64,000 bases of DNA, taken from a bacterium (lineage in GTDB: Bacteria > UBA8248). The DNA lies in NCBI GenBank assembly GCA_965199855.1, contig OZ241326.1:2336001-2400000 (forward strand), read 5' to 3'. Of this stretch, positions 15,596-52,192 are shown piece after piece. The stretch's first letter is position 1. The number at the start of each line of letters is the position of its first letter. The position numbers and the translations under genes were made by a program. The notes beneath the pieces are model-generated. The model was not told the DNA's origin, ran no database searches, and saw nothing but the letters and a program-made list of their open reading frames with translations.

Positions 15596-16255
15596 CTAGC
15601 GCGCCCTGACGCCGTATTTCTCATACTTCTTCGCCGAGGCGGAGGTGCGCCGGGCGGATTCGGGCGTCTTGAGCTCCAGCAGATAGGGGCGCTCGGCCGA
15701 GGCGGCGCGCACGGCGTCCAGGAGGCCCTCCTCGTCCCCGCCGCTCTCCCATTCGCCCTCCTCGAGCTTCACGAAGACGGGCTTGCCCTCCCCGAAGTCC
15801 AGCGTGGGCACGCCGAAGATGCCCTGCGCCTCGGCCTCCTCGTGCTCCCGCGCGATGAGGGGGACGGTCGCCCCGCTCTTCATGTCCTCCTCCCAGCGCG
15901 CCGCGTCGAGGCCGACCTCCACGGCGAGGTCGCGCAGCACGAGCTCGCTCGTGATGTCCTTGCCGTCCCTGTGCCGCGCCCTGTGGAGGGCGACGTGGTA
16001 GCGGTCGAACTCCGCCTCGCCCTGGAGCGCCGCGCACTTCGCCGCCTGATGGGGAGGCATGTCCCGGCTCGGGAAGGTCTTGTCCTCCCAGGCCTTCCAG
16101 TCCTCGCCCCTTGCGGGGCCGAAATTCGCCTGCTCCAGCACGAAGGCCCTGTAATCGACCTTGAGGCCGCTTCTCTTCTCCCGAAGACGAACGAGCCACT
16201 CCATGGCCCGGTAGGCGTAGGGTCAGACGTAGCAGTTCCACATGGTGAGGTTCAT
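15596..16255 (-). CDS. DsbA/FrnE-like probable selenoprotein (C-Y-V-U-P)
   Basis: ATG at 16255 gives MNLTMWNCYV-TGA(16225-16223)-PYAYRAMEW, in frame with the 202-aa ORF (GIFGVPT cis-Pro loop); hairpin follows. Confidence 0.82.
16192..16210 (-). promoter_or_regulatory. SECIS-like hairpin
   Basis: CGGGCCA-TGGAG-TGGCTCG, loop 19 nt after TGA. Confidence 0.65.
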
Positions 16256-16335
16256 GGCTTTCTCCCCGTGAAAAAGACTCGGAAACGACGCGCCGCCATT
16301 ATACGCCGTGAAGCGGGCGCGGGAAAGCGGGCGCG

Positions 16336-16364
16336 TTGACAAAAACGAAAAACGCGGATATTTT
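16336..16364 (+). promoter_or_regulatory. Putative sigma70 promoter (a divergent minus-strand TATAAT lies at 16298-16303)
   Basis: TTGACA-17nt-TATTTT. Confidence 0.6.
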
Positions 16365-16423
16365 CTTAGCAATGTCGAGTAATTCAATCAACAATGAAGA
16401 AATAATAAAACGGAAAATCCCGC

Positions 16424-16888
16424 ATGGAGCATGGAATGCCTGATCCGGAGAGGCGGCCGGCGTTTCTGGACGAGGCGGCGGCGGACAGGGTGAGGACGGC
16501 GGCGCTGCTCATCGGGCGGGGCGGCCGCGCCAGAGGCGCGAACGAGGCGCTCTTCCGCGTCGCGGCGCATCTTCAAAGGGCGTGGCCCCGCCGCGTGCTG
16601 GAAGCGGCGTTTCTGGAGATCGGCGACCCCTCCATCCCCGGGGGAATCGACCTTTGCGTCGAGAGGGGAGCGGAGAGAATCATCGTCATCCCCTGCTTTC
16701 TCTTCAGGGGCGATCGCGTGAAGACGGATTTGCTCGCGTTCCTCAGGGAGGGCCGGGAGAAATACGCGGACATCGACGTCATCCTGGGGCCGCATCTGGG
16801 CTTTCACCCCAAGCTCATCGAGATCGTGGACGAGCGCATCCGGCAGGTGCTCGAAACGCTGGAATTCGAGGAGAAGGCCGCGCCATGA
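16424..16888 (+). CDS. CbiX/SirB-like chelatase-fold protein
   Basis: AAFLEIGDPSI, IIVIPCFLF.G, LGFHPKL; the usual His residues are absent. Confidence 0.8.
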   Translation: MEHGMPDPERRPAFLDEAAADRVRTAALLIGRGGRARGANEALFRVAAHLQRAWPRRVLEAAFLEIGDPSIPGGIDLCVERGAERIIVIPCFLFRGDRVKTDLLAFLREGREKYADIDVILGPHLGFHPKLIEIVDERIRQVLETLEFEEKAAP

Positions 16889-16955
16889 GGCAATGAAGCG
16901 CCCCCGCCCCCGCGCCTGAGTTTCACGCTCCGAGCCAAAGTGCTTTAATGCGGGC

Positions 16956-17852
16956 ATGTCCGAGCCCGCCGCCCTCTACGCCCTCGTCTCCGCGGCGCTG
17001 CTCGCGCTCCGGGACATCTTCGGGCGCCTGGGCGTCCGGGGCATCGACCCCATATCGGGCTCGGCCTTCACCGCCCTCGTCGGCCTCCCCGTTCTCTGGA
17101 GCGTCTCCGTCCTGCTGGGAGACTTCTCGGACCCCTGGCCGGGCTGGACCTGGCCGCTTCTGTTCATCGGCGCGTCGGGGATTCTCAGGGTCTTCATCGC
17201 GCGCACGATGCTCTTCGCCGCCACGCAATACATCGGCGCGGCGCGAGCGAGCGCCATCGCCGCGACGAACCTGCTGTTCGCCGTCCTCCTGGGCGTCGTC
17301 CTGCTGGGGGAGAGCCTCACGCTCCCCATCGGGCTGGGCGCCGCCCTGGTGTTCGCAGGCTACGTTTTCATCTCCCGGAGCCGCCCCGACGGCCATGGAA
17401 AGGCGCCCCGCCGCCGCTCCTACGCCGGCATGGGGCTGGCGCTCGGCTGCGCGGCGGCGTTCGGAGCGGGCGCGGTGTTCGCGCGCCCGGCGGTGGGCTT
17501 CTTCACCTCCGCGAACGAGGCGAATTTCTACTCCAACCTTTTCGCCGTCCTGCCCTTTCTGCCCTTCTTCGCCCGCAGGGGAAAGACGGGGGAGACCGGG
17601 CGCTGGACCATGCGCAACCGGGGCTTTCTCCTGCTGGCCGGACTCTCGGCGAGCCTCGGCGTCACGTTCCTCTACCTCGCCCTGGCGAACGCGCCCGTCG
17701 TCTACGCCTTTCCCATCTCGCAGTCGAGGCCCCTGTTCGCCATCGCGATAGCGCGGCTGTTCCTTCAATCCGAAGAAAGGGTGAACCGGCGCGTCCTGGC
17801 GGGGGCGGGGGCGATTTTCGCGGGGACGAGCGTTCTGATTTTCAAGGGATGA
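16956..17852 (+). CDS. DMT/EamA family transporter
   Basis: Multiple TM helices in two repeats, LLGESLT, LFLQSEE. Confidence 0.85.
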   Translation: MSEPAALYALVSAALLALRDIFGRLGVRGIDPISGSAFTALVGLPVLWSVSVLLGDFSDPWPGWTWPLLFIGASGILRVFIARTMLFAATQYIGAARASAIAATNLLFAVLLGVVLLGESLTLPIGLGAALVFAGYVFISRSRPDGHGKAPRRRSYAGMGLALGCAAAFGAGAVFARPAVGFFTSANEANFYSNLFAVLPFLPFFARRGKTGETGRWTMRNRGFLLLAGLSASLGVTFLYLALANAPVVYAFPISQSRPLFAIAIARLFLQSEERVNRRVLAGAGAIFAGTSVLIFKG

Positions 17853-17923
17853 CGCGCCTTCCGGCATCGGGCGGGCGAGCGGCCCCGTTGCCGGCTGCGC
17901 GCGCGAACGCATCTTGCCGCCCG

Positions 17924-18517
17924 TCAGCGCAAACTCTCGCAGCGCCCTCGCTTCGCCCGAAATTCCTCCTCCTGGACGCGGCCAAAGAACGCCAGAATTT
18001 CAATCTCCCTCACGCATAACCAATAGGAGGGCCGCCTGAAATGTCCCGCATACGCTTCGCATCCTTTCCCGTCGCCCTCGATTTGGTGGCCCACCACCCG
18101 GTATTCATCATCAACCTCAACGGTAACCGCGCAGTGATAGGCGCGCATTCTCTCGTGCCGTATCGTCAGGCACTCGGTTCTCTTTGGAACGGATCGCTTG
18201 ACGCCGCCTTTCACGGAAGTATATGCGGAATACTCCGTACATCTGGTCTCCGGGACTGAATCCGCCACATGCTCCACGCGCTTCCATATATGCAGCCGGC
18301 GTCCTGCAACGGACGTCTCCGAACTGGGATAACCCATCACCGCGACAAGTCTGTCGATATGCTCGCCATACAGCTCCGACAGTCCTCGCGCGAGAACGGC
18401 ATCCGTCGTGAATGACGTGGGCGTGAAGCGGAAGGTCGCGCATCCTGCCGCCGTCAGGAGAGCGAAGCAGACAACGGACGCTCTCGCAAAAGCAGTTTTA
18501 CGGCGGCGCTTTCTCAT
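17924..18517 (-). CDS. Hypothetical lipoprotein
   Basis: Basic N-terminus plus lipobox TAAGC; lower GC than neighbours. Confidence 0.65.
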   Translation of the reverse strand: MRKRRRKTAFARASVVCFALLTAAGCATFRFTPTSFTTDAVLARGLSELYGEHIDRLVAVMGYPSSETSVAGRRLHIWKRVEHVADSVPETRCTEYSAYTSVKGGVKRSVPKRTECLTIRHERMRAYHCAVTVEVDDEYRVVGHQIEGDGKGCEAYAGHFRRPSYWLCVREIEILAFFGRVQEEEFRAKRGRCESLR

Positions 18518-18639
18518 GGCGCGGATGTCTCTCGATAATGAAAGATGAGCATCCCGGCGGCCTTGCGGCGCGAAAAACCAAGGGAAGCGGCGCCTATGCG
18601 CATCCCGACCGGCCGGCGGCGCGCGGCAATCCCGGGGCT

Positions 18640-19290
18640 TCAGTGCGTGTGGGTCATCGCCATCATGATCACGCGCTCGATTTCGAGAATCGCGTCGCTC
18701 ACTTCGCGGCCGAGCAGATCCAGCTTGCGGATCTGCTCGATGCGGGGACGGATGCGGTTGATCTCCTTGCTGGCGAACAGGTAGCGCAGAATGTCGCAGG
18801 CGTCGGCGAGGCAGATGATGGCGACGTCCCTCGGGTCCGGCGCCTCGTCCGACAGCAGCACGCCCGTGATGCGCAGCTTCACCTCGCGCTCGGCGCGCCC
18901 GTCGATGGTCGGATACCTCCGCGCCCGGAAGACCCAGAGGAATTTCTCCTCCTGGGACTCCAGAATGCCCTTTTCCACCAGGCCGGCGAGCACCTGGCTT
19001 CGGATGTCGGCGGTCTCGGCGGAAATCGCCTCGATCCAGGCCTTCGCGTCCTTCGTCTCCCCGGAGGCCGCGATGTCGGCCAGAATCCGGTCCTGCGCCG
19101 GATGACCCGTCGGGGTCTTGTCCAGAACCAGCAGCCGCTCGGGGTCGGTGTCGATGCGGTTCGCGAACGCCAGGTCCATCAGGACGGCGCCGGCGAGCAC
19201 GTATCCCATCGTGCTTTCTCGAACGGGCAGGAAGGAGCCTTTCTCGTCGTCCAGCATGAGCAGGAGGATTTCGTCGGCGAATGTCAGCAT
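18640..19290 (-). CDS. GPP34 (GOLPH3/Vps74-like) family protein
   Basis: LTFADEILLL, LAGAVLMDL, LVEKGIL...FLWVF..RRYP. Confidence 0.85.
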   Translation of the reverse strand: MLTFADEILLLMLDDEKGSFLPVRESTMGYVLAGAVLMDLAFANRIDTDPERLLVLDKTPTGHPAQDRILADIAASGETKDAKAWIEAISAETADIRSQVLAGLVEKGILESQEEKFLWVFRARRYPTIDGRAEREVKLRITGVLLSDEAPDPRDVAIICLADACDILRYLFASKEINRIRPRIEQIRKLDLLGREVSDAILEIERVIMMAMTHTH

Positions 19291-19301
19291 GGGGCGCTCC
19301 T

Positions 19302-19640
19302 TTACGAAGCCGCCGCGAGGGCCGCCTCGCGCGTGTCGTGGCAATCGATGATGGTGTCGAAGCCGCCGGCTTCTACCACGGATTTGCAATCGGGCCGCAG
19401 CGCGCAGATCATCAGCCGGCCGCCGCTCTGCTGGCATTTTCTCGCGCTCGTGAGAAACGCGCGCAGCCCCGCGCTGCTGACGTATTCCATCCCGCCGCAA
19501 TCGAGCAGGACGCGGACGTCGCCGCGCTCGACGGCCTCCGAAATCCGCTTCTCCAGATCAGGCGCGGTGAGGCCGTCAACGCGCCCCTCAATCGAGACGA
19601 CGAGGGCGGAACCCGCCTTTTCTTCCCCGATATTCATCAT
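19302..19640 (-). CDS. STAS domain anti-sigma factor antagonist
   Basis: GRVDG, YVSSAGLR. Confidence 0.9.
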   Translation of the reverse strand: MMNIGEEKAGSALVVSIEGRVDGLTAPDLEKRISEAVERGDVRVLLDCGGMEYVSSAGLRAFLTSARKCQQSGGRLMICALRPDCKSVVEAGGFDTIIDCHDTREAALAAAS

Positions 19641-19781
19641 GTCTCCATGCTCTCCTGAATGGCTGGGGGAGTTGAACCTCCGCTATAAAGGTAATCCAAC
19701 GCCCGGCGGTTTGCAACTTGCCCTTTCGCGCGCGGGGGCGTCCCGCGGGCCATCCGCGCCGCAAGCCCGAGGTTCCCCCCC

Positions 19782-20240
19782 TCACGCGCCCCCGCCCCCC
19801 TTTCTGCGCACCAGATGGACGGCGCGCATCGAGAGCACCACATCGCCCTCCTGGTTGAACGTCCTGAACTCCATGAGGACGATCCCCCGGCGCGGCTCCG
19901 AGCGGGACGCCCGCGCCTCGACGACCTCCGCCTCGACGCGCAGGGCGTCTCCGGGGCGAACGGGCTTCAGCCAGCGAATGGAGTCCATGCCGGGCGAGCC
20001 CATCCCCGTGGTTCCGATGACGCCCGTGTCGATGAACAGGCGAAACGAGGCGACCACCGTGTGAAATCCGCTGGCGATGACGCCCCCGTAGGGAGACTCG
20101 GCCGCCGCCTTCTCGTCAACGTGGAAGGGCTGCGGGTCGTAGAGCCTGGCGAACTCCACGATCTCCTCCAGCGAGAGCGTCTTCTCCTTCGTCCGGAACC
20201 GCTCGCCGACCTGAAAATCCTCGAAGAATTTCTCTCTCAT
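19782..20240 (-). CDS. MaoC family dehydratase
   Basis: FFEDF, YDPQPFHVD, IASGFHT, PVRPGD. Confidence 0.9.
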   Translation of the reverse strand: MREKFFEDFQVGERFRTKEKTLSLEEIVEFARLYDPQPFHVDEKAAAESPYGGVIASGFHTVVASFRLFIDTGVIGTTGMGSPGMDSIRWLKPVRPGDALRVEAEVVEARASRSEPRRGIVLMEFRTFNQEGDVVLSMRAVHLVRRKGGGGA

Positions 20241-22101: not shown

Positions 22102-22464
22102 CTAGTCTTTCACCTCGACGCGAATGGCCTCGAGGGGTTTGTCGCCGTGATTCTCGACGGCGTGCAGACCCTCCCTTTCCAGCCAGAACGGGACGCCCTC
22201 CTCGCGGCGCTCGCCGAGAGGGCAGACCTCGCCCTTTTCGTTGTAGTAGGTGATCTCCGGCATACTCGTGATGGTGAACACGCTCTCCCATTTGTGCGCG
22301 TGCCGCTTTTCGAGCTCGCCGGGCCGAATCGTCACTCTCAGGACGCGAACCCGCTCGTTCTCGAAGACGACCTCATGGTTCTCGGGCGCGGCGACGACGG
22401 CGTCCAGCTCCTCGGGCGTTCCCGGAACATACTCCGGCCGCCCCGGCGAAATGCTCTGGCTCAA
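22102..22464 (-). CDS. Cupin-fold protein
   Basis: APENHEVVFENERVRVL, HAH, HAVEN; TTG start overlaps upstream stop. Confidence 0.8.
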   Translation of the reverse strand: MSQSISPGRPEYVPGTPEELDAVVAAPENHEVVFENERVRVLRVTIRPGELEKRHAHKWESVFTITSMPEITYYNEKGEVCPLGERREEGVPFWLEREGLHAVENHGDKPLEAIRVEVKD

Positions 22465-23435
22465 TTTCTTCCCTCCCCGGAAAGCGCGGGCGACGGCGGC
22501 TGGGCGAACAGCGATTTCGGCAGCATGGCGTGGACTCCCTTGACGCCGTTCACGATTTGCGTAACCCGCAGGTCCACGGCGAGGCTGCAAAGCGTATAGG
22601 CGTCGTCCCTGCCCATGCCCCGCCATTCTCCGAGAAAGCGTATCGTCTCCCGAAGCGCCATCTTCGCCGCGTTGTCGAGAATGGGGTCGAACCCCATGAG
22701 AATATGATGCGTCGCGGTTTCCGCCCTGGGGGTATCGAGGCGCAAGTTCTTCCGCAGAACGATCTCGAGCTTTCCCGAAAGGCCCGTTTCGATGGCCGTC
22801 AGACAGGCCTCCCCGTCTCCCTGGCAGCCGTGCCCGTCCCCCACGGAGAACAGCGCCCCCTCGTTGAAGACCGGAAAATAGACGACGGCGCCCGACGCGA
22901 GCTCCTTGTTGTCCAGGTTTCCGCCCCAGGCGCCGGGAGGATAGCTCCCCACGCGGCCCATGGCGGGCGGGGGCGCCACGCCGAAGTTCCCGAAATAGGG
23001 ACGGAGCGGCACCTTGACGCCCGCGCCCCAGTCGCCCGTCTGCGCCTCTAGGTCAAGGTCCACGATGACGGAGCGCGCATAGGGGAAATCCTCCGGAAGC
23101 CCGCCCTGCATCGGCCGGATGGCGTTGTATCCCCAGTCGTAGCGCGTCCTCACCTCATGGACGCGAACCTCCAGGGCGTCCCCCGGCCGGGCGTCCTCCA
23201 CATAGACGGGCCCCGTCATGATGTGGGGGCCGGGCCCCTGGGGAACCCGCGCGAGAATGTCCCTCAGGTTCCGCGACGCCCTTTCTCCGAGCCGCTCCAG
23301 ATACTCCTCCCTGCCCGATTCCGTATGAACCTCCAGGACATCGCCCGAGCGCACCCGCAGCACGGGCGCGAGCGAAGCGTCGTAGTAGCCCCAATGAACG
23401 GTATCGGGCTTCGCCGTCAATTCATGGGTCGCCAT
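22461..23435 (-). CDS. Acetamidase/formamidase family protein (copy 2)
   Basis: GPHIMTGPV, GGNLDNKE, GDGHGCQGDGE. Confidence 0.9.
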   Translation of the reverse strand: MATHELTAKPDTVHWGYYDASLAPVLRVRSGDVLEVHTESGREEYLERLGERASRNLRDILARVPQGPGPHIMTGPVYVEDARPGDALEVRVHEVRTRYDWGYNAIRPMQGGLPEDFPYARSVIVDLDLEAQTGDWGAGVKVPLRPYFGNFGVAPPPAMGRVGSYPPGAWGGNLDNKELASGAVVYFPVFNEGALFSVGDGHGCQGDGEACLTAIETGLSGKLEIVLRKNLRLDTPRAETATHHILMGFDPILDNAAKMALRETIRFLGEWRGMGRDDAYTLCSLAVDLRVTQIVNGVKGVHAMLPKSLFAQPPSPALSGEGRN

Positions 23436-23539
23436 CGAAGCGCTCCTCCAGCAGGGGCGATGGGCCGCCGCTTTCCGCATACAAGCATTGCGCGCGGACG
23501 GGCGAAAGCGAGCCCGGGCGCGCCGGACGGATGGATTCC

Positions 23540-24475
23540 CTAATCGAGAATCTCCTTCGGCAGCATGGCGTGGATTCCCTTGACGCCGTTCACGATCTGC
23601 GTGACGCGCAAGTCCACCGCCAGGCTGCACAGCCTGTAGGCGTCCTCCGGGCTCATGCCGCGAAGCTCGCCCAGGAAGCGAATCGTCTCCCGGAGCGCCA
23701 TCTTCGCCGCGTTGTCGAGAATCGGGTCGAACCCCATCAGGATATGGTGGGACGCCGTCTCCGCGCGCGGCGTCTCGATTTTCATGTCCTTGCGAACGCG
23801 CATCTCGAAGACGCCGACGAGGCCCATCTCGATTCCGTTGACGTTCGCCTCGCCGTCCCCCTGACAGCCGTGCCCGTCGCCCACGGAGAACAGGGCGCCT
23901 TCGGTGAAAACAGGCAGATAGACCGTCGCGCCCGCGGTGAACTCCTTGCAGTCCGTGTTTCCGCCCCACGCCCCGGGCGGAAGCGTGGGCACGCGCCCGA
24001 GCGCGGGAGCGGGCGCGACGCCGAAATTGCCGAAAAAAGGCGCAAGAGGAACGCGGACGCCCGCGCCCCAGTCGCCCGTCCCGCTCTCCTCGTCAATCTC
24101 CACGAGCGCGACCCGCTCGTAGGGGAAATCCTCCGGCAGGCCGCCCGCCAGGGGTTTGAATCCGTTGTAGCCCCAGTCGTAGCGGGGCTTTACGTCGTGA
24201 ATCCTCACTTCCAGCGCGTCGCCGGGCCGGGCGCCCTCCACGGCCACGGGACCCGTCATGATGTGGGGTCCCGGCCCGGGCGTCATCGTCTCCAGTATCT
24301 CCCTCAAATTCCCGGAAAGCCGCTCGGGGCGCGTCCGGAGAAAATCCTTCCGGCCCGATTCGGTCTTCACGACGAGCGTGTCGCCCGAGGCCATCGTCAG
24401 GACGGGGGGAAGGGCCGCGTCGTAAAAGCCCCAATGGCAGGTATCGACCGTCGTGTCGAGCTCCCGCGTGGCCAA
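23540..24475 (-). CDS. Acetamidase/formamidase family protein (copy 1)
   Basis: GPHIMTGPV, GGNTDCKE, GDGHGCQGDGE. Confidence 0.9.
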   Translation of the reverse strand: MATRELDTTVDTCHWGFYDAALPPVLTMASGDTLVVKTESGRKDFLRTRPERLSGNLREILETMTPGPGPHIMTGPVAVEGARPGDALEVRIHDVKPRYDWGYNGFKPLAGGLPEDFPYERVALVEIDEESGTGDWGAGVRVPLAPFFGNFGVAPAPALGRVPTLPPGAWGGNTDCKEFTAGATVYLPVFTEGALFSVGDGHGCQGDGEANVNGIEMGLVGVFEMRVRKDMKIETPRAETASHHILMGFDPILDNAAKMALRETIRFLGELRGMSPEDAYRLCSLAVDLRVTQIVNGVKGIHAMLPKEILD

Positions 24476-27516: not shown

Positions 27517-27972
27517 TCATTCCCTGCTTCTTCGGGCGGCGTACGCCCCGAAATACGCGCCGATGGAAGATGCCTTCCAGTCGAGGCCCGCATCTTCGGC
27601 CTTTCGCAGCAGCTCCTCGCCGCTCATGCCGCTTTCCTCGGCCAGATGAACGAGCGAGCAAATCCCGGCCCGCCCCATGCCTTTTCAGTGGACGAACACC
27701 GGGCCCTCTTTTCTCGCCTGGGCGAGCGTCTCGTGAATCTTCGAGGCCAGCCCGTCGTTCATCGCATCGACGCCCACGGGAATATGGGCGAAGTTCATGC
27801 CCAGCTCCCGCGCCGCCGCCTCCTCCGCCTCCGGCGGGAGTTCGGCTTCTCCCTCGTCGGCCAGGCGAAGGTTGACCACCGTCCTGACTCCCCGCTTCGC
27901 CAGAGACGCCAAATCCTCCCTGTCCGGCTGGCCCCCGAACGCCAGGTTCTCAGCCAGGTCGAAATAGTTCAT
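27517..27972 (-). CDS. PTP-fold/DUF442-like sulfurtransferase or phosphatase, probable selenoprotein (H-U-KGMG-R)
   Basis: GGQP, VVNLR, GPVFVH-TGA(27687-27685)-KGMGRAG matches HCx5R; frame continues to TGA at 27519-27517 (151 aa); hairpin follows. Confidence 0.8.
27652..27675 (-). promoter_or_regulatory. SECIS-like hairpin
   Basis: GGGCGGGC-CGGGATTT-GCTCGCTC (two G-U pairs), loop 17 nt after TGA. Confidence 0.55.
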
Positions 27973-31216: not shown

Positions 31217-33373
31217 TCAAGGCTCCAGAAAACAGGCCATCGCCTCCTGCAGTTTTTCTCTCAGCGTCAGGGAGGGACGATAATCCACGTGCCGGAAATC
31301 GTCTTCGTCCATTTTCCGCAGGAGCGTCCCGTAGGTTCGCCCCATGATTCTGGCGGGAAGGAGGTTTTCCTTCCGTTCGCCGCGCAGCGCCGCGGCGGCG
31401 CGATCGTAATATGATCGCGCCCGGCGCGCCTGGAACCTGAGAAGGCCCACAACCCGCCCGGTATGCCTCTTGTCCTTCAGATCCGAGGCCGCTACGCCGT
31501 ATTCCTCCATCTCCTTTCGGGGAAGATAGACGCGCCCCCGCCCGGCGTCCTCCCAGACGTCCCGCAGGATATTCGTCATCTGGAGCGCCCTCCCCAGAGA
31601 TACGGCGTAATCCTTCGCGGACTCGGACGCCACCCCGAAGACGCCCAGACAGGCCAGCCCCACCGCCGAGGCCACCTTGTCGCAATAGGCTTCCAGTTCC
31701 CGGAAATCCTCGAATCTCCGCTCCTCGAGGTCCATCGCCACTCCGTCGCAAATCGCCTCGAAATGCTCCTGCGGCAAGTCGTATTTCCGCGCCGCCCGGG
31801 CGAGCTCCGCGATGATCGGGTGGGCCGGACTCTCATCTCCCAAACGCGCCGCGGCATCCCTCCATTCGCGCAGCAGGATTCTTTTTCCGGAAACCTCGCC
31901 CGGCTCGTCGGCGATGTCGTCGGCCATGCGGCAATAGGCGTAGATCGCGATGATGGCGCGCCTTTTCTCCGCCGGCAGGGTGAAAAAGGAGAGGTAGAAA
32001 TTCGAGCGGCTCTGGCGAACGAGCCAGAGGCAATATCTGCGGTTCAGCTCCTCTTCCGCGCGAGCGTCCACGAGAGATTCGAGCCGATGAATCGGGCGAA
32101 ACGCGGCGAGAAACGACTTGGCCTTGTCCCGCCTGTTCAGCTTCGGCGAACCGGCGCAGACGTTCCACTCCTCGCGGGAAATCGCATCGAGCGCCGCCGC
32201 GCCGCCCCGCCAGATCGCCCGAAACTCGCGGCCCGACCTGCCGCGAATCCTGCGAAAAAGGGGCAGGCCCTCCCGGAAGTGGCGCTTCGTTCTGTTGATG
32301 TGATGCACGAGAAGGGCGCGCAGCTGGGGCGTCGCCGCATCCTTCAGCAAATCATCGTCGGACACGCCGAACTTCCTCATGTCGTCCTGGGGCATATAGA
32401 TGAGGTTCCGCTCGGCGTTTTCCCTGATATCCTGCAAATGGTTCGCAATCTGCAGGCCCGTGCATATCGCGTCCGACGCGCGAAAGGCGGCCGCGCCGCG
32501 CGCGCCGTGCAACATGAGATAAATCCGCCCGACGGGGTGCGCGGAGCGGCGGCAATAGTCGATCAGCGCCTCGTAGTCCGGATACCTGGATACCGTGACG
32601 TCCTGCCGAAAGGCGGAGAGCAGATCCTGAAAAGGCCGCAGGGGAAGATCGAACAGGCGAATCGTATGGGAAAGCGCCGCGAAAACGTCCCTCTTCGCCC
32701 CTCCTCCCTTGGCCTCGACGAGCTCTTCCTCCCATTCGTCGAGACGGGCGAGCCGCTCGGCCGGAGGCGCGGCCGCATCTGATATGTCGTCCGTGCTTCT
32801 GCAAAACGCATAGACCGCGAGGATGTGCGGCCTCAGCTTCGGCGGCAGCAGCCGTGAAGCGACAGGGAAATTCTCGGGGTGGGCGTCCACGATTCTCCGA
32901 CATGCGTCATAGGCGGCGCCTGCGTCTTCCCGATCGCTTTTTCCGTTTTTTCCCGAACCGGGTATCTCCTCGCCTCGTCTCAGAGACTCTATCAGGGGCG
33001 CGTCGGCCGGCAGAAAATCGAAATCCCCCAGCGCGAAAGGATGCGCCCATTCATGTCCGCTCACCCCCAGATTCCTCGCCGTCCCGCTCTTCCACTCGCA
33101 GTCATAGAAGCGGAGGTGGACGGCGCGGTCGGGGTAACGATGATGCGTCTTCCAGCGAAGACGCCCGACGCGGGCCTCGATGCCGAGCTCCTCGCAAATC
33201 TCCCGCCGCAGCGCCTCCCGGGGGTTCTCGCCGGGTTCCACCTTTCCGCCGGGAAACTCCCAGAGGCCGGGCATCTGTCCGCCCTGCGGGCGGCGGCAGA
33301 CGAGAACGCGCTCCTCGCGCCAGACGATTCCGGCGACGACGCTAAGCTCCAAAGCGGCGGCTTCTTCTTTCAT
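31217..33373 (-). CDS. NUDIX (MutT-like) - HpnC - HpnD fusion (squalene synthesis)
   Basis: WEFPGGKVEPGE...LRREICEELG; HPENFPVAS..AFCRSTDDISD; SNFYLSF..YCRMADDIAD..LQMTNILRD; single open frame. Confidence 0.85.
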   Translation of the reverse strand: MKEEAAALELSVVAGIVWREERVLVCRRPQGGQMPGLWEFPGGKVEPGENPREALRREICEELGIEARVGRLRWKTHHRYPDRAVHLRFYDCEWKSGTARNLGVSGHEWAHPFALGDFDFLPADAPLIESLRRGEEIPGSGKNGKSDREDAGAAYDACRRIVDAHPENFPVASRLLPPKLRPHILAVYAFCRSTDDISDAAAPPAERLARLDEWEEELVEAKGGGAKRDVFAALSHTIRLFDLPLRPFQDLLSAFRQDVTVSRYPDYEALIDYCRRSAHPVGRIYLMLHGARGAAAFRASDAICTGLQIANHLQDIRENAERNLIYMPQDDMRKFGVSDDDLLKDAATPQLRALLVHHINRTKRHFREGLPLFRRIRGRSGREFRAIWRGGAAALDAISREEWNVCAGSPKLNRRDKAKSFLAAFRPIHRLESLVDARAEEELNRRYCLWLVRQSRSNFYLSFFTLPAEKRRAIIAIYAYCRMADDIADEPGEVSGKRILLREWRDAAARLGDESPAHPIIAELARAARKYDLPQEHFEAICDGVAMDLEERRFEDFRELEAYCDKVASAVGLACLGVFGVASESAKDYAVSLGRALQMTNILRDVWEDAGRGRVYLPRKEMEEYGVAASDLKDKRHTGRVVGLLRFQARRARSYYDRAAAALRGERKENLLPARIMGRTYGTLLRKMDEDDFRHVDYRPSLTLREKLQEAMACFLEP

Positions 33374-34423: not shown

Positions 34424-35860
34424 ATGAGCGAGAAGAACTCCCCGCAAGACCCCGGTTCGGTCGGCCTGACGAGGACGCGGACGATAACGCTGCCCGATCC
34501 GTTCAGGACGGATTCGGGCGAAACGCTGCCCGAAGTCCGCGTCGCCTACGAGACATACGGCGAGCTCTCCCCCGGCGGTGACAACGCCGTCCTCGTCATC
34601 CACGCCTTGACGGGCGACGCGCACGCGGCGGGCTTCCACAGCGAGGCTGATCCGCGCCCCGGCTGGTGGGATCCGATGATCGGCCCCGGCAAGGCCATCG
34701 ACACCGAAAAATACTTCGTCGTCTCCTCCAACAACCTGGGGGGATGCGCGGGCACGACGGGGCCCGGCTCCATAAATCCCGCCACGGGGAAGCCCTACAA
34801 CATGCGCTTCCCCGTCATCACGGTGGAGGACACGGTTCGAGCGCACAGGCTGCTCCTCGAGCGCCTGGGGGTAAAGCGCCTCAGGACGGTCATCGGCGGC
34901 TCCCTCGCCGGGATGCAGACCCTGGAGTGGGGTCTGCGCTACGGGGACTTCTGCGACTCCGTCATCCCGGTCGCGGCCGCCGCCCGCCTGGATCCCATGG
35001 GAATCGCGTGGGGCAAAATCGCCCGCAGGGCCATTACGGCGGACGCCGCCTGGAAAAGCGGCGACTACGCCCCCGGCCAGGGGCCGCGCAAGGGCCTGAG
35101 CGCGGCGCGGATGCTGGCCCACGTCACCTACCTGAGCCGGGGAATCATGTGGGAGAAATTCGGGCGCGAGACGCGGGACAAGGACGCGATGCTGGCGGAC
35201 ATCGCCTCCCGCTTCGAGGTGGAGAGCTATCTCGACCACCAGGGCGAGAAATTCGTCGATCGATTCGACGCCAACTCGTATCTGTATATCTCCCGCATGA
35301 TGGACCTCTACGACGCCTCGCTGGGCTTCGAGAGCCTGGAAGCCTCCCTCTCCCGCCTGAGCGCCAAGTGCATGCTCGTGTGCTTCATCTCCGACTGGCT
35401 CTTCCCGCCGGAGAGAAGCATTGAGATGGCCGAGGCGCTGCGAAAGCTCGGGCGTGAGGTGGAGCTGCACACCGTGGAATCCACCTACGGTCACGACGCC
35501 TTTCTGGTGCAATACGACAAGCTCACCGAGATCGTCGGCGGCTTTCTGGAAAGGCTCGAAAGGGGCGGGGCGATCGGCATCGACGCGACCCCCGTCCCCC
35601 CGGGGTGCCGCCGCCTCGTTCTCTCTTTTCCCGGCGACTTGGCGGACAAACCCGTTTTGTGGGAACTCGGCGAGAGATACTCGTTTTCCGTCAACGTGGC
35701 GAGAAGCGAGCTCGACGCCCGCTCGGGCTGGCAGGTATGCGAATTCCAAGGAGACGCGGAGGAAATCGCGCGCGCGGCGGCGGAACTCAGAAGCATGGGC
35801 GTCTGGGTCGATGCGGGAGGGCACGACGCCATCGACCACGATCGCGCCGAAGTGGTATAA
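34424..35860 (+). CDS. metX: Homoserine O-acetyltransferase with C-terminal NIL-like domain
   Basis: HALTGD, GGSLAGM, RFDAN, GHDAFL; tail RLVLSFP..KPVLWEL..VNV..G. Confidence 0.88.
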   Translation: MSEKNSPQDPGSVGLTRTRTITLPDPFRTDSGETLPEVRVAYETYGELSPGGDNAVLVIHALTGDAHAAGFHSEADPRPGWWDPMIGPGKAIDTEKYFVVSSNNLGGCAGTTGPGSINPATGKPYNMRFPVITVEDTVRAHRLLLERLGVKRLRTVIGGSLAGMQTLEWGLRYGDFCDSVIPVAAAARLDPMGIAWGKIARRAITADAAWKSGDYAPGQGPRKGLSAARMLAHVTYLSRGIMWEKFGRETRDKDAMLADIASRFEVESYLDHQGEKFVDRFDANSYLYISRMMDLYDASLGFESLEASLSRLSAKCMLVCFISDWLFPPERSIEMAEALRKLGREVELHTVESTYGHDAFLVQYDKLTEIVGGFLERLERGGAIGIDATPVPPGCRRLVLSFPGDLADKPVLWELGERYSFSVNVARSELDARSGWQVCEFQGDAEEIARAAAELRSMGVWVDAGGHDAIDHDRAEVV

Positions 35861-35935: not shown

Positions 35936-36568
35936 ATGAGCGCACTGAAAGAACCCATCGTCGTGGTGAAATACTCGGATTACACGTGACCGTTCTGCTA
36001 CGTCGCCACCGTGGGTGGCACGCCCGTGATCGAGGAAGACTCCGACGTGGTCGTCGAATGGGTCAGCTGGGAGGGCAGACCCCCCGGGCAGGATTTCGCC
36101 GGCTACACGCCCGAGCAGAAAAAAGAGAACTACGAGAACCACCACAAGCCTCTCGCCGAGAAATACGGCGTGCCGCTCCGCCCGGCGGGGGCGGACTACC
36201 GCACGACGGGCCTCCACATGGCCACCTACTACGCCCGGGACAAGGGAAAATTCAGGGAATTCCGGGATCGCTGCTACAAGGCGCGCTGGGTGGACGACCT
36301 CGACCTCGAGGACGCGGAGACCATCGCCGCGCTCGGCGAGGAGGTCGGCCTGGCCGGGCAGGAAATCAAGGCCGTCATCGCCGAGGGGCGCTACATCGGC
36401 GCCCTGCGCAGCCAGCGCGCCCAGGGCAAGGGTCTGGGCATTTTCGGAATCCCCACCTTCGTGGTGGAGGGCAAGCTCTTCTGGGGCAAGGACGTCATCG
36501 ACGACGTGCGCGCCGAGGTCGCCCGCGTCCGGCGGGAGCGGCTCGAAAAGCAAGAGGAAGAGGGCTAG
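35936..36568 (+). CDS. DsbA/FrnE-like probable selenoprotein (D-Y-T-U-P-F-C)
   Basis: MSALKEPIVVVKYSDYT-TGA(35987-35989)-PFCY matches DxxCPxC; GIPTFVV..FWG.D C-terminus. Confidence 0.87.
36001..36022 (+). promoter_or_regulatory. SECIS-like hairpin
   Basis: CGT(C)GCCACC-GTG-GGTGGCACG, loop 21 nt after TGA. Confidence 0.68.
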
Positions 36569-38759: not shown

Positions 38760-38984
38760 CTATTTCTTCTTGCCTTTGGGCAGCTCCGCCGGAAACGCGA
38801 TTTTGAGCCATTGCCGCGTCAGGATGGTCGCGGCGTTCTCGTCTTTTCCGGGAATGAACGCTATCGGCTCCTTCGGCTGCGCGCCTTCCCGATCCAGCAT
38901 GAAGACGTCGACGCCGAACCCATAAAGATCGTGCTCGCGGGTCTGAAGATTGTATTTCACCCCGTTGTTCGTCAGTTCGCTCAT
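38760..38984 (-). CDS. Small hypothetical protein
   Basis: GAGGGG RBS and GC-biased third positions. Confidence 0.55.
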   Translation of the reverse strand: MSELTNNGVKYNLQTREHDLYGFGVDVFMLDREGAQPKEPIAFIPGKDENAATILTRQWLKIAFPAELPKGKKK

Positions 38985-43042: not shown

Positions 43043-43372
43043 ATGAAAAGCGCCCTGGAAATCGCGATGGAGAAGACTTCCGCCATCGGGGAGGAAGCGC
43101 GTCGGGAGCTGGAAAAACTCACCCCCGGGCAAAAAAGCAGAATCGAGGAAATCAAAAAGCGCTACGAGGGAAAAATCGCCGAAAAAGACGTTCTCCACCA
43201 GCAGGAACTGTCGAAAATGACGGGGGGCGCGCCCATTGAAGCCGTAGAAGCGCAACTGGAGTCCGAGGCCAAAGAGGCGCTCGCCGCGTTTCGCCGGAAA
43301 TTCAGGGAAGACCGCGACGCGCTGGAAGCGGAGCGCGACGCGGAGATAGAAGCCATCCGAAAAGAAGGCTGA
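43043..43372 (+). CDS. Hypothetical coiled-coil protein
   Basis: MKSALEIAMEK start; GGAGG RBS; upstream promoter. Confidence 0.75.
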   Translation: MKSALEIAMEKTSAIGEEARRELEKLTPGQKSRIEEIKKRYEGKIAEKDVLHQQELSKMTGGAPIEAVEAQLESEAKEALAAFRRKFREDRDALEAERDAEIEAIRKEG

Positions 43373-43488: not shown

Positions 43489-43899
43489 ATGCCTCGCTCC
43501 GTTAGGATATTCGAGAGAACCTGGCTGTGCGCCTGGCTCATCGGAATCGTCGTCGCCACGATCGTCCATCCCGGCATGGTCAGCGCGGCATCCGGCATTT
43601 TTGGCGATCTGGCGCGGCTGTTCGTCGTTTTTTTCCAGATCTTCACCTTGGGCTTCACCCTGCTGTTCGTTCTCCTCGCCTCCAGAAAACGGAACAGGAT
43701 CGCCATGCGGACCTTGATCGCCTTCTTCGGGGTGGGGCTCGTTTTCTACATCCCGCAGCTCTTCGTCATTTCCGAGGCCGGGATGCTGGGGGTACTCTCG
43801 TCCGTCCAGCTGCTGATGCAGTGCGTGGGCGTCTATTTCCTGCTAACCGAGGAGAGCCGCGACTGGTTCAACGGGACGGATCTCTATCCGGCGAACTGA
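43489..43899 (+). CDS. Hypothetical 4-TM membrane protein
   Basis: Four hydrophobic segments, C-terminal ESRDWF. Confidence 0.7.
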   Translation: MPRSVRIFERTWLCAWLIGIVVATIVHPGMVSAASGIFGDLARLFVVFFQIFTLGFTLLFVLLASRKRNRIAMRTLIAFFGVGLVFYIPQLFVISEAGMLGVLSSVQLLMQCVGVYFLLTEESRDWFNGTDLYPAN

Positions 43900-47430: not shown

Positions 47431-47614
47431 GGCGCGCTGCAAGACGGCGCGCCCGGGATAGACGGAGAGCGAAGCCCATGCGCGCGTCGCCGGCGCCTGC
47501 CCGCCCTTCACCGCGCTTTTCAGGCGACAAGGCGACGCAGGGCGCGGCCAAGGCGAGCGATCTCCGCTTCGTGCTATGTTCGGGGAAATCCATCGAACGG
47601 AGGAGGATGCTTCC

Positions 47615-47932
47615 ATGGCGGTCACCGCAATCGTTCGCTTCACGCTTCCCGAAGGCAGAACCCGCGAGGAGACGGCCGCGGCCTTCGAGAAATCCGCGCC
47701 TCTCTACAGGGACGTTCAGGGGCTGGTGCGCAAATACTATCTCGTGTCCGAGGACGCGCGCACCGGCGGCGGGGTGTATCTCTTTGAATCGCGCGCGGAC
47801 GCCGAGCGGCTCTACGACGACGCCTGGCGCGCCGGGCTGCGCGAGCGTCTGGGCGTCGAGGCGAGCGTGGAATACTTCGACTCGCCCGTCATCGTGGACA
47901 ACGAAGCGGGAGCGATCTCCACCGCGTCCTGA
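47615..47932 (+). CDS. YdhR-like monooxygenase
   Basis: GLVRKYY, GGVYLFES. Confidence 0.82.
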   Translation: MAVTAIVRFTLPEGRTREETAAAFEKSAPLYRDVQGLVRKYYLVSEDARTGGGVYLFESRADAERLYDDAWRAGLRERLGVEASVEYFDSPVIVDNEAGAISTAS

Positions 47933-48038
47933 AAGAGACCGCCCGCGCCGCAAGCATCGGCGGCGCTCGTCGATTCCATGAAAATGGGCGGGACTGCGAA
48001 AAAATCAGAAAACGGCTGACTTTCCCCACAAAACAATC

Positions 48039-48731
48039 TTACTCCTGGCCCGCCGCCGCTCTCGACAGAATCTCCCGAAAGCCCTCATACACCGCTTCGC
48101 CGAAGGCGGGCGGAGGGCGGACTTCCGTCAGTTTTCCGCCCTCTATCGTCTTCTCGGATGCGTATGGGTTATGAACGGCCTCCCCGTTCGGGAGGATCAG
48201 GGTAGGGCTGGTCATCGGCAGGCCCTCCTCGTCCCGCAGACGCATGGCTTCCCGGCAGTCGTCCATCACGCCTTCCTCGTATGCGCCCGATTCCAGGTCC
48301 GCACGCACCCTGTCGGCGTCGAGGCCTGCCTCCCCGGCGATTTCGCAAAGAACCGACTGCTCATCCACCCGCCTGCCCTCGAAGAAAAAGCCGCGCCGTA
48401 TAGCGAGGTCGAACGCGCGCGCCTTTTCCGGATCTTGCGTCCAGGCGCTCGCGCAGGCCTGAAAAGCGGGAATCGTGCTTCTCACATATTCGTCATGCGG
48501 CCAGCTTCTGCACGGGGCGAGCGGCTCCTGCACCGCCACCAGAGGCCACTCCTGATCCACGATGTGGCGAGGCGCCGGGCGGTCGTTGATGATTTCGAGG
48601 GGAAACGCGCGCCATTTGAGGCGCAGCTTCTCCCGGAAGGCGGGCATCACCCTGTCCAGCCGCGCCGCGGCCATATATGCCCAGGGTCAATGGTATTCGT
48701 GAAAAATTTCGACAACCGCCGGATTCGCCAT
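48039..48731 (-). CDS. DsbA/FrnE-like probable selenoprotein (E-Y-H-U-P-W)
   Basis: MANPAVVEIFHEYH-TGA(48689-48687)-PWAYMAA, in frame with the 211-aa ORF (WRAFPLE, TSPT); GGAGG RBS. Confidence 0.83.
48650..48686 (-). promoter_or_regulatory. SECIS-like two-stem hairpin
   Basis: Lower stem CCCTG/CAGGG, upper stem GGCCGC-GGC-GCGGCT, loop 20 nt after TGA. Confidence 0.68.
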
Positions 48732-48897
48732 ACCGCCTCCTCGCTGAGAACTTAAAAGTAACTCTTTCATCCTGACGCCCCGACGCCCCGCGCGCAACCC
48801 GCCGGGGATTCAGGCGCGCGGCCGCGGCTTCTTCCGCCGCCTTGATGCGCTCGCCGAAACGTGTGATACGATGAAGGATATTCGAGGAGACGCCCGC

Positions 48898-49314
48898 ATG
48901 AACCCCGACAGCCGGGCCATCGCCGACATTCTTTCAGCCGCCGGGACGATAGCCGTGGTCGGCCTCTCGGCCGATCCTTCCCGGACGAGCCACCGAATCG
49001 CCGCCTATCTCCAAGAGGCGGGCTACCGCGTCATTCCCGTGAACCCCAACGTCGAGCGCGTCCTCGGGGAAAAGGCGCATTCTCGCCTCGGCGAGATCGA
49101 GGAGCGCGTCGATATCGTCAACGTGTTCAGACGCTCCGGGGAAATTCCGGCCCTGGCGGACGAGGCGCTGAAAAAGCGCCCGCGCGCGTTCTGGATGCAA
49201 AAGGGCGTCTCGCATCCTGCGGCCGCGCGCCGCCTCGAGGTGGCGGGAATCGCCTCGATTCAGGACCTCTGCATCAAGGTCGCCCACCGCGGCCTCGCCC
49301 CCACCCCTCTATGA
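48898..49314 (+). CDS. CoA-binding protein (YccU-like)
   Basis: IAVVGLS, IPVNP, VDIVNVFR, WMQ.G, DLCIKV. Confidence 0.9.
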   Translation: MNPDSRAIADILSAAGTIAVVGLSADPSRTSHRIAAYLQEAGYRVIPVNPNVERVLGEKAHSRLGEIEERVDIVNVFRRSGEIPALADEALKKRPRAFWMQKGVSHPAAARRLEVAGIASIQDLCIKVAHRGLAPTPL

Positions 49315-49384
49315 GAGCGGGCCGCTGCGATTCTCCCGAAAATTTCATCGCTACGCGCTCCTGGCGCTCGCCGCGCTGACGGCG

Positions 49385-50170
49385 ATGGGAATTCCGTCTT
49401 TTCTGGAAAACGTTCTTCTGTATCACCCCCACCGGGAGCTCGACCTGACGCCCGAAAGCTACGGCGTCCCATACGAAGACGTCCGTTTCCGCGCCGCTGA
49501 CGGCGCGCGACTTCACGGCTGGCATGTTGCGCCGAAGGAGGCGGGCGGCCCGGTTCTCCTGTGGGCGCACGGCAACGCCGGCAACCTCTCGCACCGGGCG
49601 GAGAACATCGCGCTCATTCAAAGGGAGCTGGGCGCGGGCGTCTTCGCGTTCGACTACCGGGGCTACGGGAAAAGCGAGGGCAGACCGAGCGAGGATGGCC
49701 TCTACGCCGACGGCAGGGCCGCCCACGACTGGCTGCTGGCGCGCGCGCCGCGTGAGCGCGTTTTCCTGTTCGGCCGCTCGCTGGGCGCGGCCGTGGTCGT
49801 CCGACTCGCCTCGGAGGGAAGAAAGGCGCGCGGCCTCATCCTGGAGAGCCCTTTCGAGAGCACCCTCGCCATGGGCAAGAAGATGTTTCCCTTCCTGCCG
49901 GTCGGCTGGCTCGTCTCCAAGAAGTTCGACAATGCGTCCATGCTCCCGCAAGTGAAGACGCCCCTGCTGATCCTGCACGGCGACCGGGACGGCATCGTGC
50001 CCCACGCCCAGGGGAGACGGCTCTTCGAGGCGGCGCGCGCGCCCGGCAAGCGCTTCTTCACCATCGAGGGGGCGGGCCACAACGACACGTATCTCGCGGG
50101 AGGCGCGCTCTACTGGAAGGCGTGGCGGGATTTTCTGCAAAACCCCGAGGGCGGGCGAAGCGGGAGCTGA
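49385..50170 (+). CDS. Alpha/beta hydrolase (ABHD13-like)
   Basis: HGNAGN, DYRGYG, GRSLG, HGDRD, GAGHN. Confidence 0.9.
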   Translation: MGIPSFLENVLLYHPHRELDLTPESYGVPYEDVRFRAADGARLHGWHVAPKEAGGPVLLWAHGNAGNLSHRAENIALIQRELGAGVFAFDYRGYGKSEGRPSEDGLYADGRAAHDWLLARAPRERVFLFGRSLGAAVVVRLASEGRKARGLILESPFESTLAMGKKMFPFLPVGWLVSKKFDNASMLPQVKTPLLILHGDRDGIVPHAQGRRLFEAARAPGKRFFTIEGAGHNDTYLAGGALYWKAWRDFLQNPEGGRSGS

Positions 50171-50245
50171 GCAAAGAGTCCGCGCCCGGCGTCTTTCTCC
50201 GCGCTCTTCCGTCCGCGTGGAGCGGCGCGCCGCCGAAGGCCGGCC

Positions 50246-51031
50246 TCAGGGCTTTCGCGCCCGCCGCCTCTCTCGAAACTCCTCCACCAGCCGCTCGTGA
50301 CGCGCGCTGGCGAGAAATCCCTCGACGAACGGGCCGGCCGGATGGTTCACGAGATTCTCCGGCGCATCGACCTGAACGATCGCCCCCTCGCGCATCACGG
50401 CGATTCGGTCGGCGATTTGAAAAGCGTCGGAAAGATCATGCGTCACGAGCAGGCTCATCGCCCCGAGCTCCTCGTGCACCCGCCTCAACTCCTTGCGGAC
50501 CTCGACCCTGGCGACCGGGTCGATGTTCGCCATGGGCTCATCAAGGAGAAAAACGCGCGGAGGAATGGCGATGGCGCGGCCGATCGCCACCTTCTGCCGC
50601 TGGCCCGCGCTCAGACCGCCCGGGCGGCGGCCAGCCCAGCTCTCGCCGATCCCCAGGCGGCGCATCACGCCGCGCGCGCGCTCGTTCAGGGCGCCAGGCA
50701 GCCACCCGCGAATTTTCAGGGCGAAACCCAGGTTAGAGTGTCTCTTCGGGTCGAACACCTTCATGTGCGGCCACAGGGCGTAGCTCTGAAACACCAGTTG
50801 AATCCCGCGCCGGCCGGGCGGCACGCCGTTCATCCGCGCCCCGTCGAGGTAGATGTGGCCCGCGTCCTCGTCCTCCACGCCGGCGATCAGGCGCAGCAGG
50901 GTGGATTTCCCGCAACCGGTCGGCCCGACGAGCGCCATGAATTCCCCGTCCTCCAGCGTGAGGGAGAGGCCATCGACCGCCCGCGCGCCGTCGAAATCCT
51001 TTCTGAGTCCCACAATTCTCAAAGGGCTCAC
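50246..51031 (-). CDS. ABC transporter ATP-binding protein (MalK/PotA-like), no permease in window
   Basis: GPTGCGKS, LSAGQ, LLDEP, VTHD. Confidence 0.9.
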   Translation of the reverse strand: MSPLRIVGLRKDFDGARAVDGLSLTLEDGEFMALVGPTGCGKSTLLRLIAGVEDEDAGHIYLDGARMNGVPPGRRGIQLVFQSYALWPHMKVFDPKRHSNLGFALKIRGWLPGALNERARGVMRRLGIGESWAGRRPGGLSAGQRQKVAIGRAIAIPPRVFLLDEPMANIDPVARVEVRKELRRVHEELGAMSLLVTHDLSDAFQIADRIAVMREGAIVQVDAPENLVNHPAGPFVEGFLASARHERLVEEFRERRRARKP

Positions 51032-51169
51032 CGGCCTGCCTCGCTGTGAAAAAGGGGGGTTGGTTTGTGAGAATCACGGCGCCGGACAGCGCGCGCTCCG
51101 CTCCCGCCGGCCTTTCGGCGCGGCGTCCGGCCCCATCCCGGAGGCGGGTCGTCTCCTCCCGACGCTTCC

Positions 51170-51517
51170 CTATCCGCTCTCGGGGGCGAGGCTGTTCAGC
51201 TTCTCGACGCCCGGCGTGAAAATCTCCTCCAGAACGAGCTCCCCCTCGCCCGCGTTTCGCGTGGAATGCTCCTGGTTCGGCGGAAAGACCACGACGCCGC
51301 CCGGCCCGAGCGTCACCTCCCGTCCGCCGCAGGCGAACCGCGCCTTTCCCTCGAGAACAATCGTCATCTGCTCGTTCGGATGCGAATGGGGGTTGTACAT
51401 GTCCACGCCCGCGCGAATCGTCTGGCGAAGCACGGTAAGATTCTCCCCCGCCGCCACCCGCTGCGCCCGCTCCCCGGTGTCATGCGCCGCCATCTTCCCG
51501 AAATGATAGACTCTCAC
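51170..51517 (-). CDS. Cupin domain protein
   Basis: PHSHPNEQ, PPNQEH. Confidence 0.85.
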   Translation of the reverse strand: MRVYHFGKMAAHDTGERAQRVAAGENLTVLRQTIRAGVDMYNPHSHPNEQMTIVLEGKARFACGGREVTLGPGGVVVFPPNQEHSTRNAGEGELVLEEIFTPGVEKLNSLAPESG

Positions 51518-51667
51518 GCTTCCCTCCGCCCGGATGGCTGAAAATTCGATGGAAAATGCGGACCCCGCGTTATGGAATCGCTCCCCTCATCGTATAGAAG
51601 TATTTGCATCCCCTCAATCGTTCTCTTAGAGTATTCTTACGCCTTCCCCCCCGCTCTGGAGACCGTG

Positions 51668-52192
51668 ATGAAGCGAATCCGCATCCCCGTCATCGCCGCC
51701 GCCCTGGCGGCCGCCCTGTGGGCGATACATCCGGCGACCTCCTCGGGGCTCGGGCCCGGCGCGCCCGCCCCCGAACTGAAGGGCGGCCCCTGGCTGGGCG
51801 TCGAGAAGCCCCTTCAACTGAAGGAGCTGCGCGGCAAGGTCGTGCTTCTCGACATGTGGACGTTCGGCTGAATCAACTGCGTGCGGGAGATTCCCGCGCT
51901 GCGCTCGTGGCACGAGCGCTACGGGGACAAGGGGCTGGTCGTCATCGGAAACCACGCGCCCGAGTTCGGCTTCGAGAAGAGCAGGGCGAACGTGGAGAAG
52001 GCCATCGCCAAGCTCGGCATCGCCTACCCCGTTGTGATGGACAACGGGTTCGTCAACTGGAACGCCTACGGCAACCGCTACTGGCCGACGAAATACCTGA
52101 TCGACAAGAAGGGAATCGTGCGCTTCAAGGCGATTGGCGAGGGGGGCCACGAGCGCGCCGAGGCGATGATCAAGAAGCTGCTCGCCGAGTGA
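51668..52192 (+). CDS. Exported thioredoxin-like (DipZ/TlpA-type) probable selenoprotein (U-I-N-C)
   Basis: Signal peptide; [17 protein letters not shown](51869-51871)-INC, then HAPEF, NRYWP. Confidence 0.88.
51881..51899 (+). promoter_or_regulatory. SECIS-like hairpin
   Basis: GTGCGGGA-GAT-TCCCGCGC, loop 17 nt after TGA. Confidence 0.7.

Follow-up and report, generated by a model that had tools for sequence, protein, structure and literature searches.

The selenoprotein families closest to those considered here are entered in Table 1 of a 2026 catalogue of 119 families (PMC13188914): DsbA-like form 1 (PF01323, UxxC, with U for selenocysteine, Sec), DsbA-like form 2 (PF01323, DxxUP), a Prx-like thiol:disulfide oxidoreductase (PF00578, UxxC) and a redoxin (PF08534, UxxC). 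Rhodanese-like selenoproteins are known in forms 1–5 (PF00581, NF041203, NF045694), and sulfur transferases of the DUF442/Blh/TIGR01244 type have been described with cysteine (the Cupriavidus SQR DUF442 and Xylella Blh; PDB 3gxg, 2f46). Here we analyze a 64-kb stretch of bacterial DNA (contig OZ241326.1, positions 2,336,001 to 2,400,000; hereafter the window, with a GC content of 65% and 58 called genes) in which five genes, numbered sites 1 to 5, contain an in-frame TGA: sites 1, 3 and 4 are DsbA/FrnE-like, site 5 is a redoxin (UxxC) and site 2 is a DUF442/Blh protein (HUKGMGR). All five are very probably genuine bacterial selenoprotein genes that work by the known mechanism, and the Sec-containing DUF442 protein at 27517–27972 is likely to represent a real and so far unreported selenoprotein family.

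Neither the recoding mechanism nor the selenoprotein richness of the likely lineage is new, and four of the five families have been described before. Site 3 shares domain, Sec position and UxxC motif with DsbA form 1; sites 4 (ExxUP) and 1 resemble form 2 and are without the resolving Cys. The site-1 motif is CxxUP, with a Cys three residues before Sec, an arrangement that Table 1 of the catalogue does not list for DsbA (PMC13188914), and the occurrence of three paralogs within 33 kb also sets this locus apart from the known DsbA-like selenoproteins. Database protein P0378, which is 43% identical to site 1 and has W at the Sec column, shows the same motif (Cys where Asp is usual, and no resolving Cys); judging by sequence, CxxUP proteins are possibly a distinct DsbA selenoprotein subfamily. 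Site 5 shares domain and UxxC with the Prx-like and redoxin selenoproteins, but its close full-length homologs (49–63% identity) nearly all have Cys (118 in the best 120 of 1975, with W in one).

Reading through each TGA fuses two in-frame segments into one complete, domain-length protein (5/5). An earlier note on this DNA had placed in-frame TGAs at 16223, 27685, 35987, 48687 and 51869, each at a redox or catalytic Cys position and each followed at 17–21 nt by a hairpin with a G-containing loop. All five codons are indeed present, three of them on the minus strand; each falls in the column of the catalytic Cys of homologs, and the loops (GGA, CGGGAUUU, GUG, GGC and GAU for sites 1 to 5) begin 20, 17, 21, 20 and 17 nt downstream of the TGA, and all have G as their first or second base. 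The note was also right that TGA is a normal stop elsewhere (39 of the 58 called genes end in it) and that standard pipelines split such genes: this is evident in database proteins P0001–P0009, P0129, P0173, P0293 and P0295. Within the called genes there are exactly five in-frame TGAs, the five sites, compared with 220 TGG and 217 TGY codons. A scan of all window TGAs, on both strands, for a coding-like frame past the TGA together with a hairpin resembling a selenocysteine insertion sequence (SECIS) gave no sixth site, and for this reason the density to quote is five per 64 kb instead of five per 37 kb.

The strongest evidence comes from DNA conservation. A genome scan recovered 18 syntenic related loci (protein identity to site 2 of 55–80%; GC 52–66%), and the TGA is kept in 18/18 at site 2 and in 17/17 of those that reach site 3. 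At site 2, codons 102–106 are invariant in 19/19 sequences. Synonymous difference falls to 0.137 across the hairpin, from 0.396 on its upstream side and 0.333 on its downstream side, and each of the 11 lowest-scoring windows (of 138) overlaps it. Residues past the site-2 TGA vary synonymously and are therefore translated. The site-3 stem shows no change in its codons GCC ACC and GGT, and GGC is kept in 17/18, while the loop wobble position takes all four bases. A blind control pointed to the same two places: 342 kb of related DNA held 4128 open TGA contexts, which gave 106 groups conserved in at least eight loci, and a hairpin was present in every member of only two groups, those of sites 2 and 3; no other group exceeds 38%. 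On the basis of this conservation in relatives, predicted Sec recoding at sites 2 and 3 is well supported.

Database proteins add to the picture at site 2. Of the ten closest, nine terminate at precisely the His that precedes the TGA and one stops short of it, and 150 more distant matches have Cys (134) or other residues (11) in the Sec column, which five do not cover. A Cys form of the family exists (P0023, 49% identical). In a tree of 40 rows (33 selected homologs, bootstrap not converged), P0037 and P0136, which end at the same His as the truncated proteins, branch outside the group formed by P0023 and the TGA sequences (97/86); this hints that the Sec clade is older and wider, and that Cys was regained once within it. 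One related locus, L018, has an ortholog (10001–10396, plus strand) that keeps the Sec TGA and the hairpin but carries another TGA at codon 132, which encodes Trp in the others, and Arg for Gly100: it is possibly a decaying copy.

For sites 1 and 4 it is the truncation of database proteins that is conserved. Orthologs of at least 60% identity begin past the Sec position without exception (23/23 for site 1; 60/60 for site 4), and among matches of at least 40% identity the start is exactly the first Met after Sec in 13/38 and 39/62, respectively, counted by eye, some of the remaining matches being possibly shortened by contig ends. Distant full-length homologs with Cys at the Sec column number three for site 1 and five for site 4. 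The three DsbA-like proteins score 62.5, 92.3 and 52.4 bits against PF01323 (gathering cut-off 25.6), Sec taking the place of the first Cys in CxxC. Predicted Sec recoding at sites 1 and 4 is well supported by the shared truncation, which speaks indirectly for conservation of the UGA and hairpin. Support at site 5 is weaker. The protein scores 50.6 bits against PF00578 (cut-off 26) and 39.9 against PF08534 (26.6), its N-terminus reads as hydrophobic and signal-like – the redoxin is probably exported – and a database match of 98% identity consists of the downstream fragment only. Site 5 is the least secured of the five, though its hairpin is the strongest. None of the five proteins scores above threshold with an NCBIfam selenoprotein model.

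Hairpins were compared with those expected by chance using the published rule for bacterial SECIS elements (loop of 3–9 nt with G in position 1–2, stem of 4–16 bp, spacing of 16–37 nt, at most −7.5 kcal/mol; PMC13188914). With a stem search, 5/5 sites conform, against 7/39 true TGA stops (P=0.0007), 2/19 other stops and 27/205 Cys codons; with minimum free energy folding the figures are 4/5, 10/39 (P=0.03), 2/19 and 46/205. The earlier note had named equal frequency of such hairpins after true TGA stops as one observation that would tell against Sec: under the published rule they are enriched at the sites. Resampling of synonymous codons gave P=0.046, 0.019, 0.010, 0.054 and 0.005 for sites 1 to 5 (combined 2e-5). 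A stricter rule separates the sites further (5/5 against 3/39 true TGA stops and 5/208 Cys codons), but it was chosen after inspecting the five sites and we rely on the published one. Folding z-scores against shuffles range from −0.03 to −2.08. Loose hairpin energy (−10 kcal/mol) was rejected as evidence: with 4/5 sites against 15/39 true TGA stops (P=0.15) it fails to discriminate. The covariance model that the note had proposed for rescanning was set aside, since the stems of the five aligned hairpins are out of register; the rule-based window scan reported above took its place. In short, the hairpins are enriched at the sites, but alone they are weak evidence and no proof.

In the proposed mechanism, which follows established bacterial Sec biology, the stem-loop lying 17–21 nt downstream of each UGA would recruit SelB-GTP-Sec-tRNA, and Sec would be inserted at the position of the active-site Cys. 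Several observations weigh against it. None of selA, selB, selC or selD lies within the window, where an Rfam scan found tRNA-Val and tRNA-Asn only, and the 18 related loci contain no tRNA gene. The site-2 hairpin shows no two-sided compensatory change (0/7 pairs) and its covariation is no better than that of shuffles: most pairs are invariant, and the stem changes are one-sided (A-U 12, G-U 7; one G-C to G-U). The site-3 hairpin is not an outlier in the synonymous-window test (0.173 vs 0.250; of the 177 windows, 14 or more have lower values). Conservation at sites 1, 4 and 5 was judged from database proteins alone, not from relatives' DNA, and among the best 120 of 1975 homologs site 5 is represented by a single near-identical truncated cluster.

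The element that is likely to be new is the site-2 protein. The earlier note's survey of the five genes holds as to their being real, but it missed this DUF442-family selenoprotein at 27685. The 119-family Table 1 has no entry for PF04273 or for the protein tyrosine phosphatase (PTP) fold, and neither "phosphatase" nor "DUF442" occurs in the catalogue's accessible text (PMC13188914); neither occurs in the deep-Sep paper. Literature pairing "DUF442" with "selen", as far as its available text goes, concerns Cys enzymes or domain content. No description of a Sec-containing DUF442 protein emerged from a literature comparison that did not extend to BSepDB Table S2, the groundwater deep-Sep study or the 2025 work of Haft and Tolstoy, any of which could list such a candidate.

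Assignment to the family is based on both sequence and predicted structure. The site-2 protein scores 38.5 bits against PF04273 (cut-off 26.1), which matches 104/104 members of its alignment. Its AlphaFold model (mean predicted local distance difference test score 95) has as best structural match the DUF442 protein 3gxg (Z 19.0; root-mean-square deviation 2.2 over 141 residues), also first by Foldseek; a PDB sequence search gave one marginal match, 2m3v. The loop U96-KGMG-R101 has the arrangement nucleophile-X4-Arg, a spacing found in 75/103 aligned homologs. The protein therefore has the fold, the PF04273 domain and the H-C-X4-R loop of the DUF442/Blh/TIGR01244 sulfur transferases, but differs from them in having Sec for Cys, in being stand-alone and in carrying an extra conserved Cys, Cys105. 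In the characterized DUF442 loop CRTGTR, Cys94 carries the persulfide and Arg99 is needed (PMC8533005), and the DUF442 domain of Blh, despite its PTP fold, moves sulfur from thiosulfate to cyanide or glutathione (PMC5823870). Because the site-2 loop has the spacing of CRTGTR and the Blh domain transfers sulfur, we lean towards a Sec-dependent, rhodanese-type sulfurtransferase, by analogy with these Cys domains: Sec96 would take sulfane sulfur from thiosulfate or a persulfide and then pass it to a thiol acceptor, and Arg101 would bind the anion. Probable sulfane-sulfur chemistry at a Sec nucleophile is shared with the rhodanese-like selenoproteins; the site-2 protein differs from these in its fold, which is that of PTP and dual-specificity phosphatases (DSP), in its loop (UKGMGR, not UxxS, UxxG or CxU) and in having no match to PF00581, either itself or among its 103 homologs.

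A different function for the same selenoprotein, as a phosphatase (DSP/PTP) or a selenium carrier, is rather unlikely, yet it is the rival that fares best. The fold is tied with that of PTP/DSP enzymes, Pfam PTP-like models matching as well as PF04273, and the Gly usual at loop position +3 (92/103 homologs) is replaced by Met, Val or Leu in the site-2 group. Three points count against sulfur transfer: the archaeal Tk-PTP ties with DUF442 in the fold comparison (Z 18.2 vs 19.0), the TIGR01244 score of 54.6 is below the cut-off of 85.85, and annotation of the window genes identified no sqr or pdo gene near site 2 and no sulfide-oxidation genes among its neighbors. The P-loop of classical PTP/DSP phosphatases, however, is CX5R, which the site-2 loop is not; UX4R is instead the spacing of the sulfur-transferring DUF442 domains and of most homologs. 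Sec rhodaneses are, moreover, already an established theme (PMC13188914).

As to the codons themselves, it is very improbable that TGA is a true stop and that the five are pseudogenes or split genes starting at an internal Met past it. Database proteins are indeed annotated as starting or ending around the TGA, site 2 has an internal Met with GAGG upstream, and the site-5 TGA is known from one species cluster only. But the TGA stands at the catalytic column across 18 (site 2) and 17 (site 3) divergent loci, flanked on either side by sequence under purifying selection, a conservation that refutes a true stop for these two sites. Furthermore, a Shine-Dalgarno-like motif precedes 4/5 full-length starts and only 1/5 post-TGA starts, the residues before the TGA align to the beginning of the DSBA profile, and five independent nonsense mutations all at a catalytic Cys are implausible.

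Similarly improbable is the insertion of Cys at UGA, which could conceivably come about through a Cys-tRNA that reads UGA or a Sec pathway loaded with Cys. Sequence by itself cannot name the inserted residue, and neither the window nor the 18 loci hold a tRNA-Sec; the hairpin geometry, however, fits the SelB-dependent model as published (PMC13188914), and by the inclusion rule of BSepDB the likely lineage has the Sec pathway (PMC13326102). Genome-wide reassignment of TGA to Trp or Gly (codes 4 or 25) can be set aside, being excluded by the codon counts (39/58 genes end in TGA, 220 TGG, and only five internal TGAs, all at Cys columns), even with W at the Sec column of two distant database homologs (P0378, P0269), in which a gene caller probably read TGA under code 4.

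As for the organism, its most likely group is GTDB UBA8248, named Spongiamicota (PMC11920076). Against this assignment it must be said that it comes from record names of relatives (Nitrospinota, Nitrospinae, Nitrospinaceae, Ca. Tectomicrobia), not from a tree; genomes with such names are filed under UBA8248 in BSepDB (PMC13326102). Three UBA8248 genomes are in the top ten there, with 54, 50 and 48 selenoproteins (Table 2 of PMC13326102). The earlier note's claim of a very selenoprotein-rich organism is therefore probably right, but the richness is already published. Other rich bacteria are Olavius Delta 1 (57–63) and a Methylomirabilota metagenome-assembled genome (63); in these, as in the UBA8248 genomes (48–54), many Trx-fold selenoproteins are likewise scattered, but the local density in the window is about 4–6 times their implied average. 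At 50 selenoproteins per 3–4.4 Mb, five in 64 kb has P=0.005–0.001, with 0.06–0.2 such windows expected per genome, and at 100 per genome one to three are expected; the window was picked for its selenoproteins, and paralogs may cluster. This suggests that published counts for the lineage are too low, possibly because they cover known families only (BSepDB; PMC13326102). That the lineage holds the largest bacterial selenoproteome (more than 63, perhaps about 100), including the first PTP-fold selenoprotein in the form of a Sec-dependent DUF442 sulfurtransferase, is a tentative proposal and, as a whole, somewhat doubtful.

Table. Positions of the five candidate selenoprotein genes and their SECIS-like hairpins in the window.
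Feature	Positions	Strand	Details
Site 1, DsbA/FrnE-like (PF01323) selenoprotein, 219 aa	15596..16255	-	C-Y-V-U-P-Y-A (CxxUP, without downstream Cys); Sec codon 16223-16225
Site 1 SECIS-like hairpin	16192..16210	-	8 bp, loop GGA, 20 nt after TGA
Site 2, stand-alone DUF442/Blh (PF04273, TIGR01244-like) PTP-fold selenoprotein, 151 aa	27517..27972	-	loop H-U-K-G-M-G-R (UX4R); Sec codon 27685-27687
Site 2 SECIS-like hairpin	27652..27675	-	7-8 bp, loop CGGGAUUU, 17 nt after TGA; changes very little among relatives
Site 3, DsbA/FrnE-like selenoprotein, 210 aa	35936..36568	+	D-Y-T-U-P-F-C (UxxC); Sec codon 35987-35989
Site 3 SECIS-like hairpin	36001..36022	+	6 bp core + 3 bp, loop GUN
Site 4, DsbA/FrnE-like selenoprotein, 230 aa	48039..48731	-	E-Y-H-U-P-W-A (ExxUP); Sec codon 48687-48689
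Site 4 SECIS-like hairpin	48657..48673	-	7 bp, loop GGC, 20 nt after TGA
Site 5, AhpC-TSA/redoxin (ResA/TlpA-like) selenoprotein, 174 aa	51668..52192	+	W-T-F-G-U-I-N-C (UxxC); Sec codon 51869-51871
Site 5 SECIS-like hairpin	51881..51899	+	8 bp, loop GAU, 17 nt after TGA

Other genes of the window are of interest in their own right. Directly upstream of site 3 lies a MetX-like acyltransferase with a C-terminal NIL domain (34424–35860, plus strand), an order kept in related loci. A 711-aa protein (31217–33352, minus strand) fuses a MutT-like Nudix domain with HpnC and HpnD of squalene synthesis, both Hpn models being above cut-off; the fusion is full length in 17 related loci (67–85% identity). 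Two tandem acetamidase/formamidase paralogs (22461–24475, minus strand) correspond to three in related loci. The segment 7577–15180 contains an MmeI-like type IIG restriction-modification gene (12385–15180), an N6/N4 methylase-like open reading frame (ORF), DUF7689 and DUF1902, with leuC/D-like genes in between. At 52918–59201 (plus strand) tRNA-Asn is followed by a low-GC (54–61%) island with a 1425-aa DruE-like helicase (PADLOC E 3e-154) and an unassigned 660-aa ORF, which looks like an integrated defense island. No Pfam or NCBIfam match was found for the ORFs at 17924–18517 (minus), 43043–43372 (plus), 43489–43899 (plus) and 38760–38984 (minus).

For the lineage, these data mean that counting selenoproteins by known families gives minimum numbers, and that public protein sets systematically contain its redox genes in truncated form. 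As to DUF442, the site-2 protein probably adds a new selenoprotein family whose fold (PTP/DSP) has no entry in the 2026 catalogue. Together with its Cys form (P0023) it provides a natural Sec and Cys pair, from which it may be learned what is gained from selenium in sulfane-sulfur transfer or in a loop of the phosphate-binding type.

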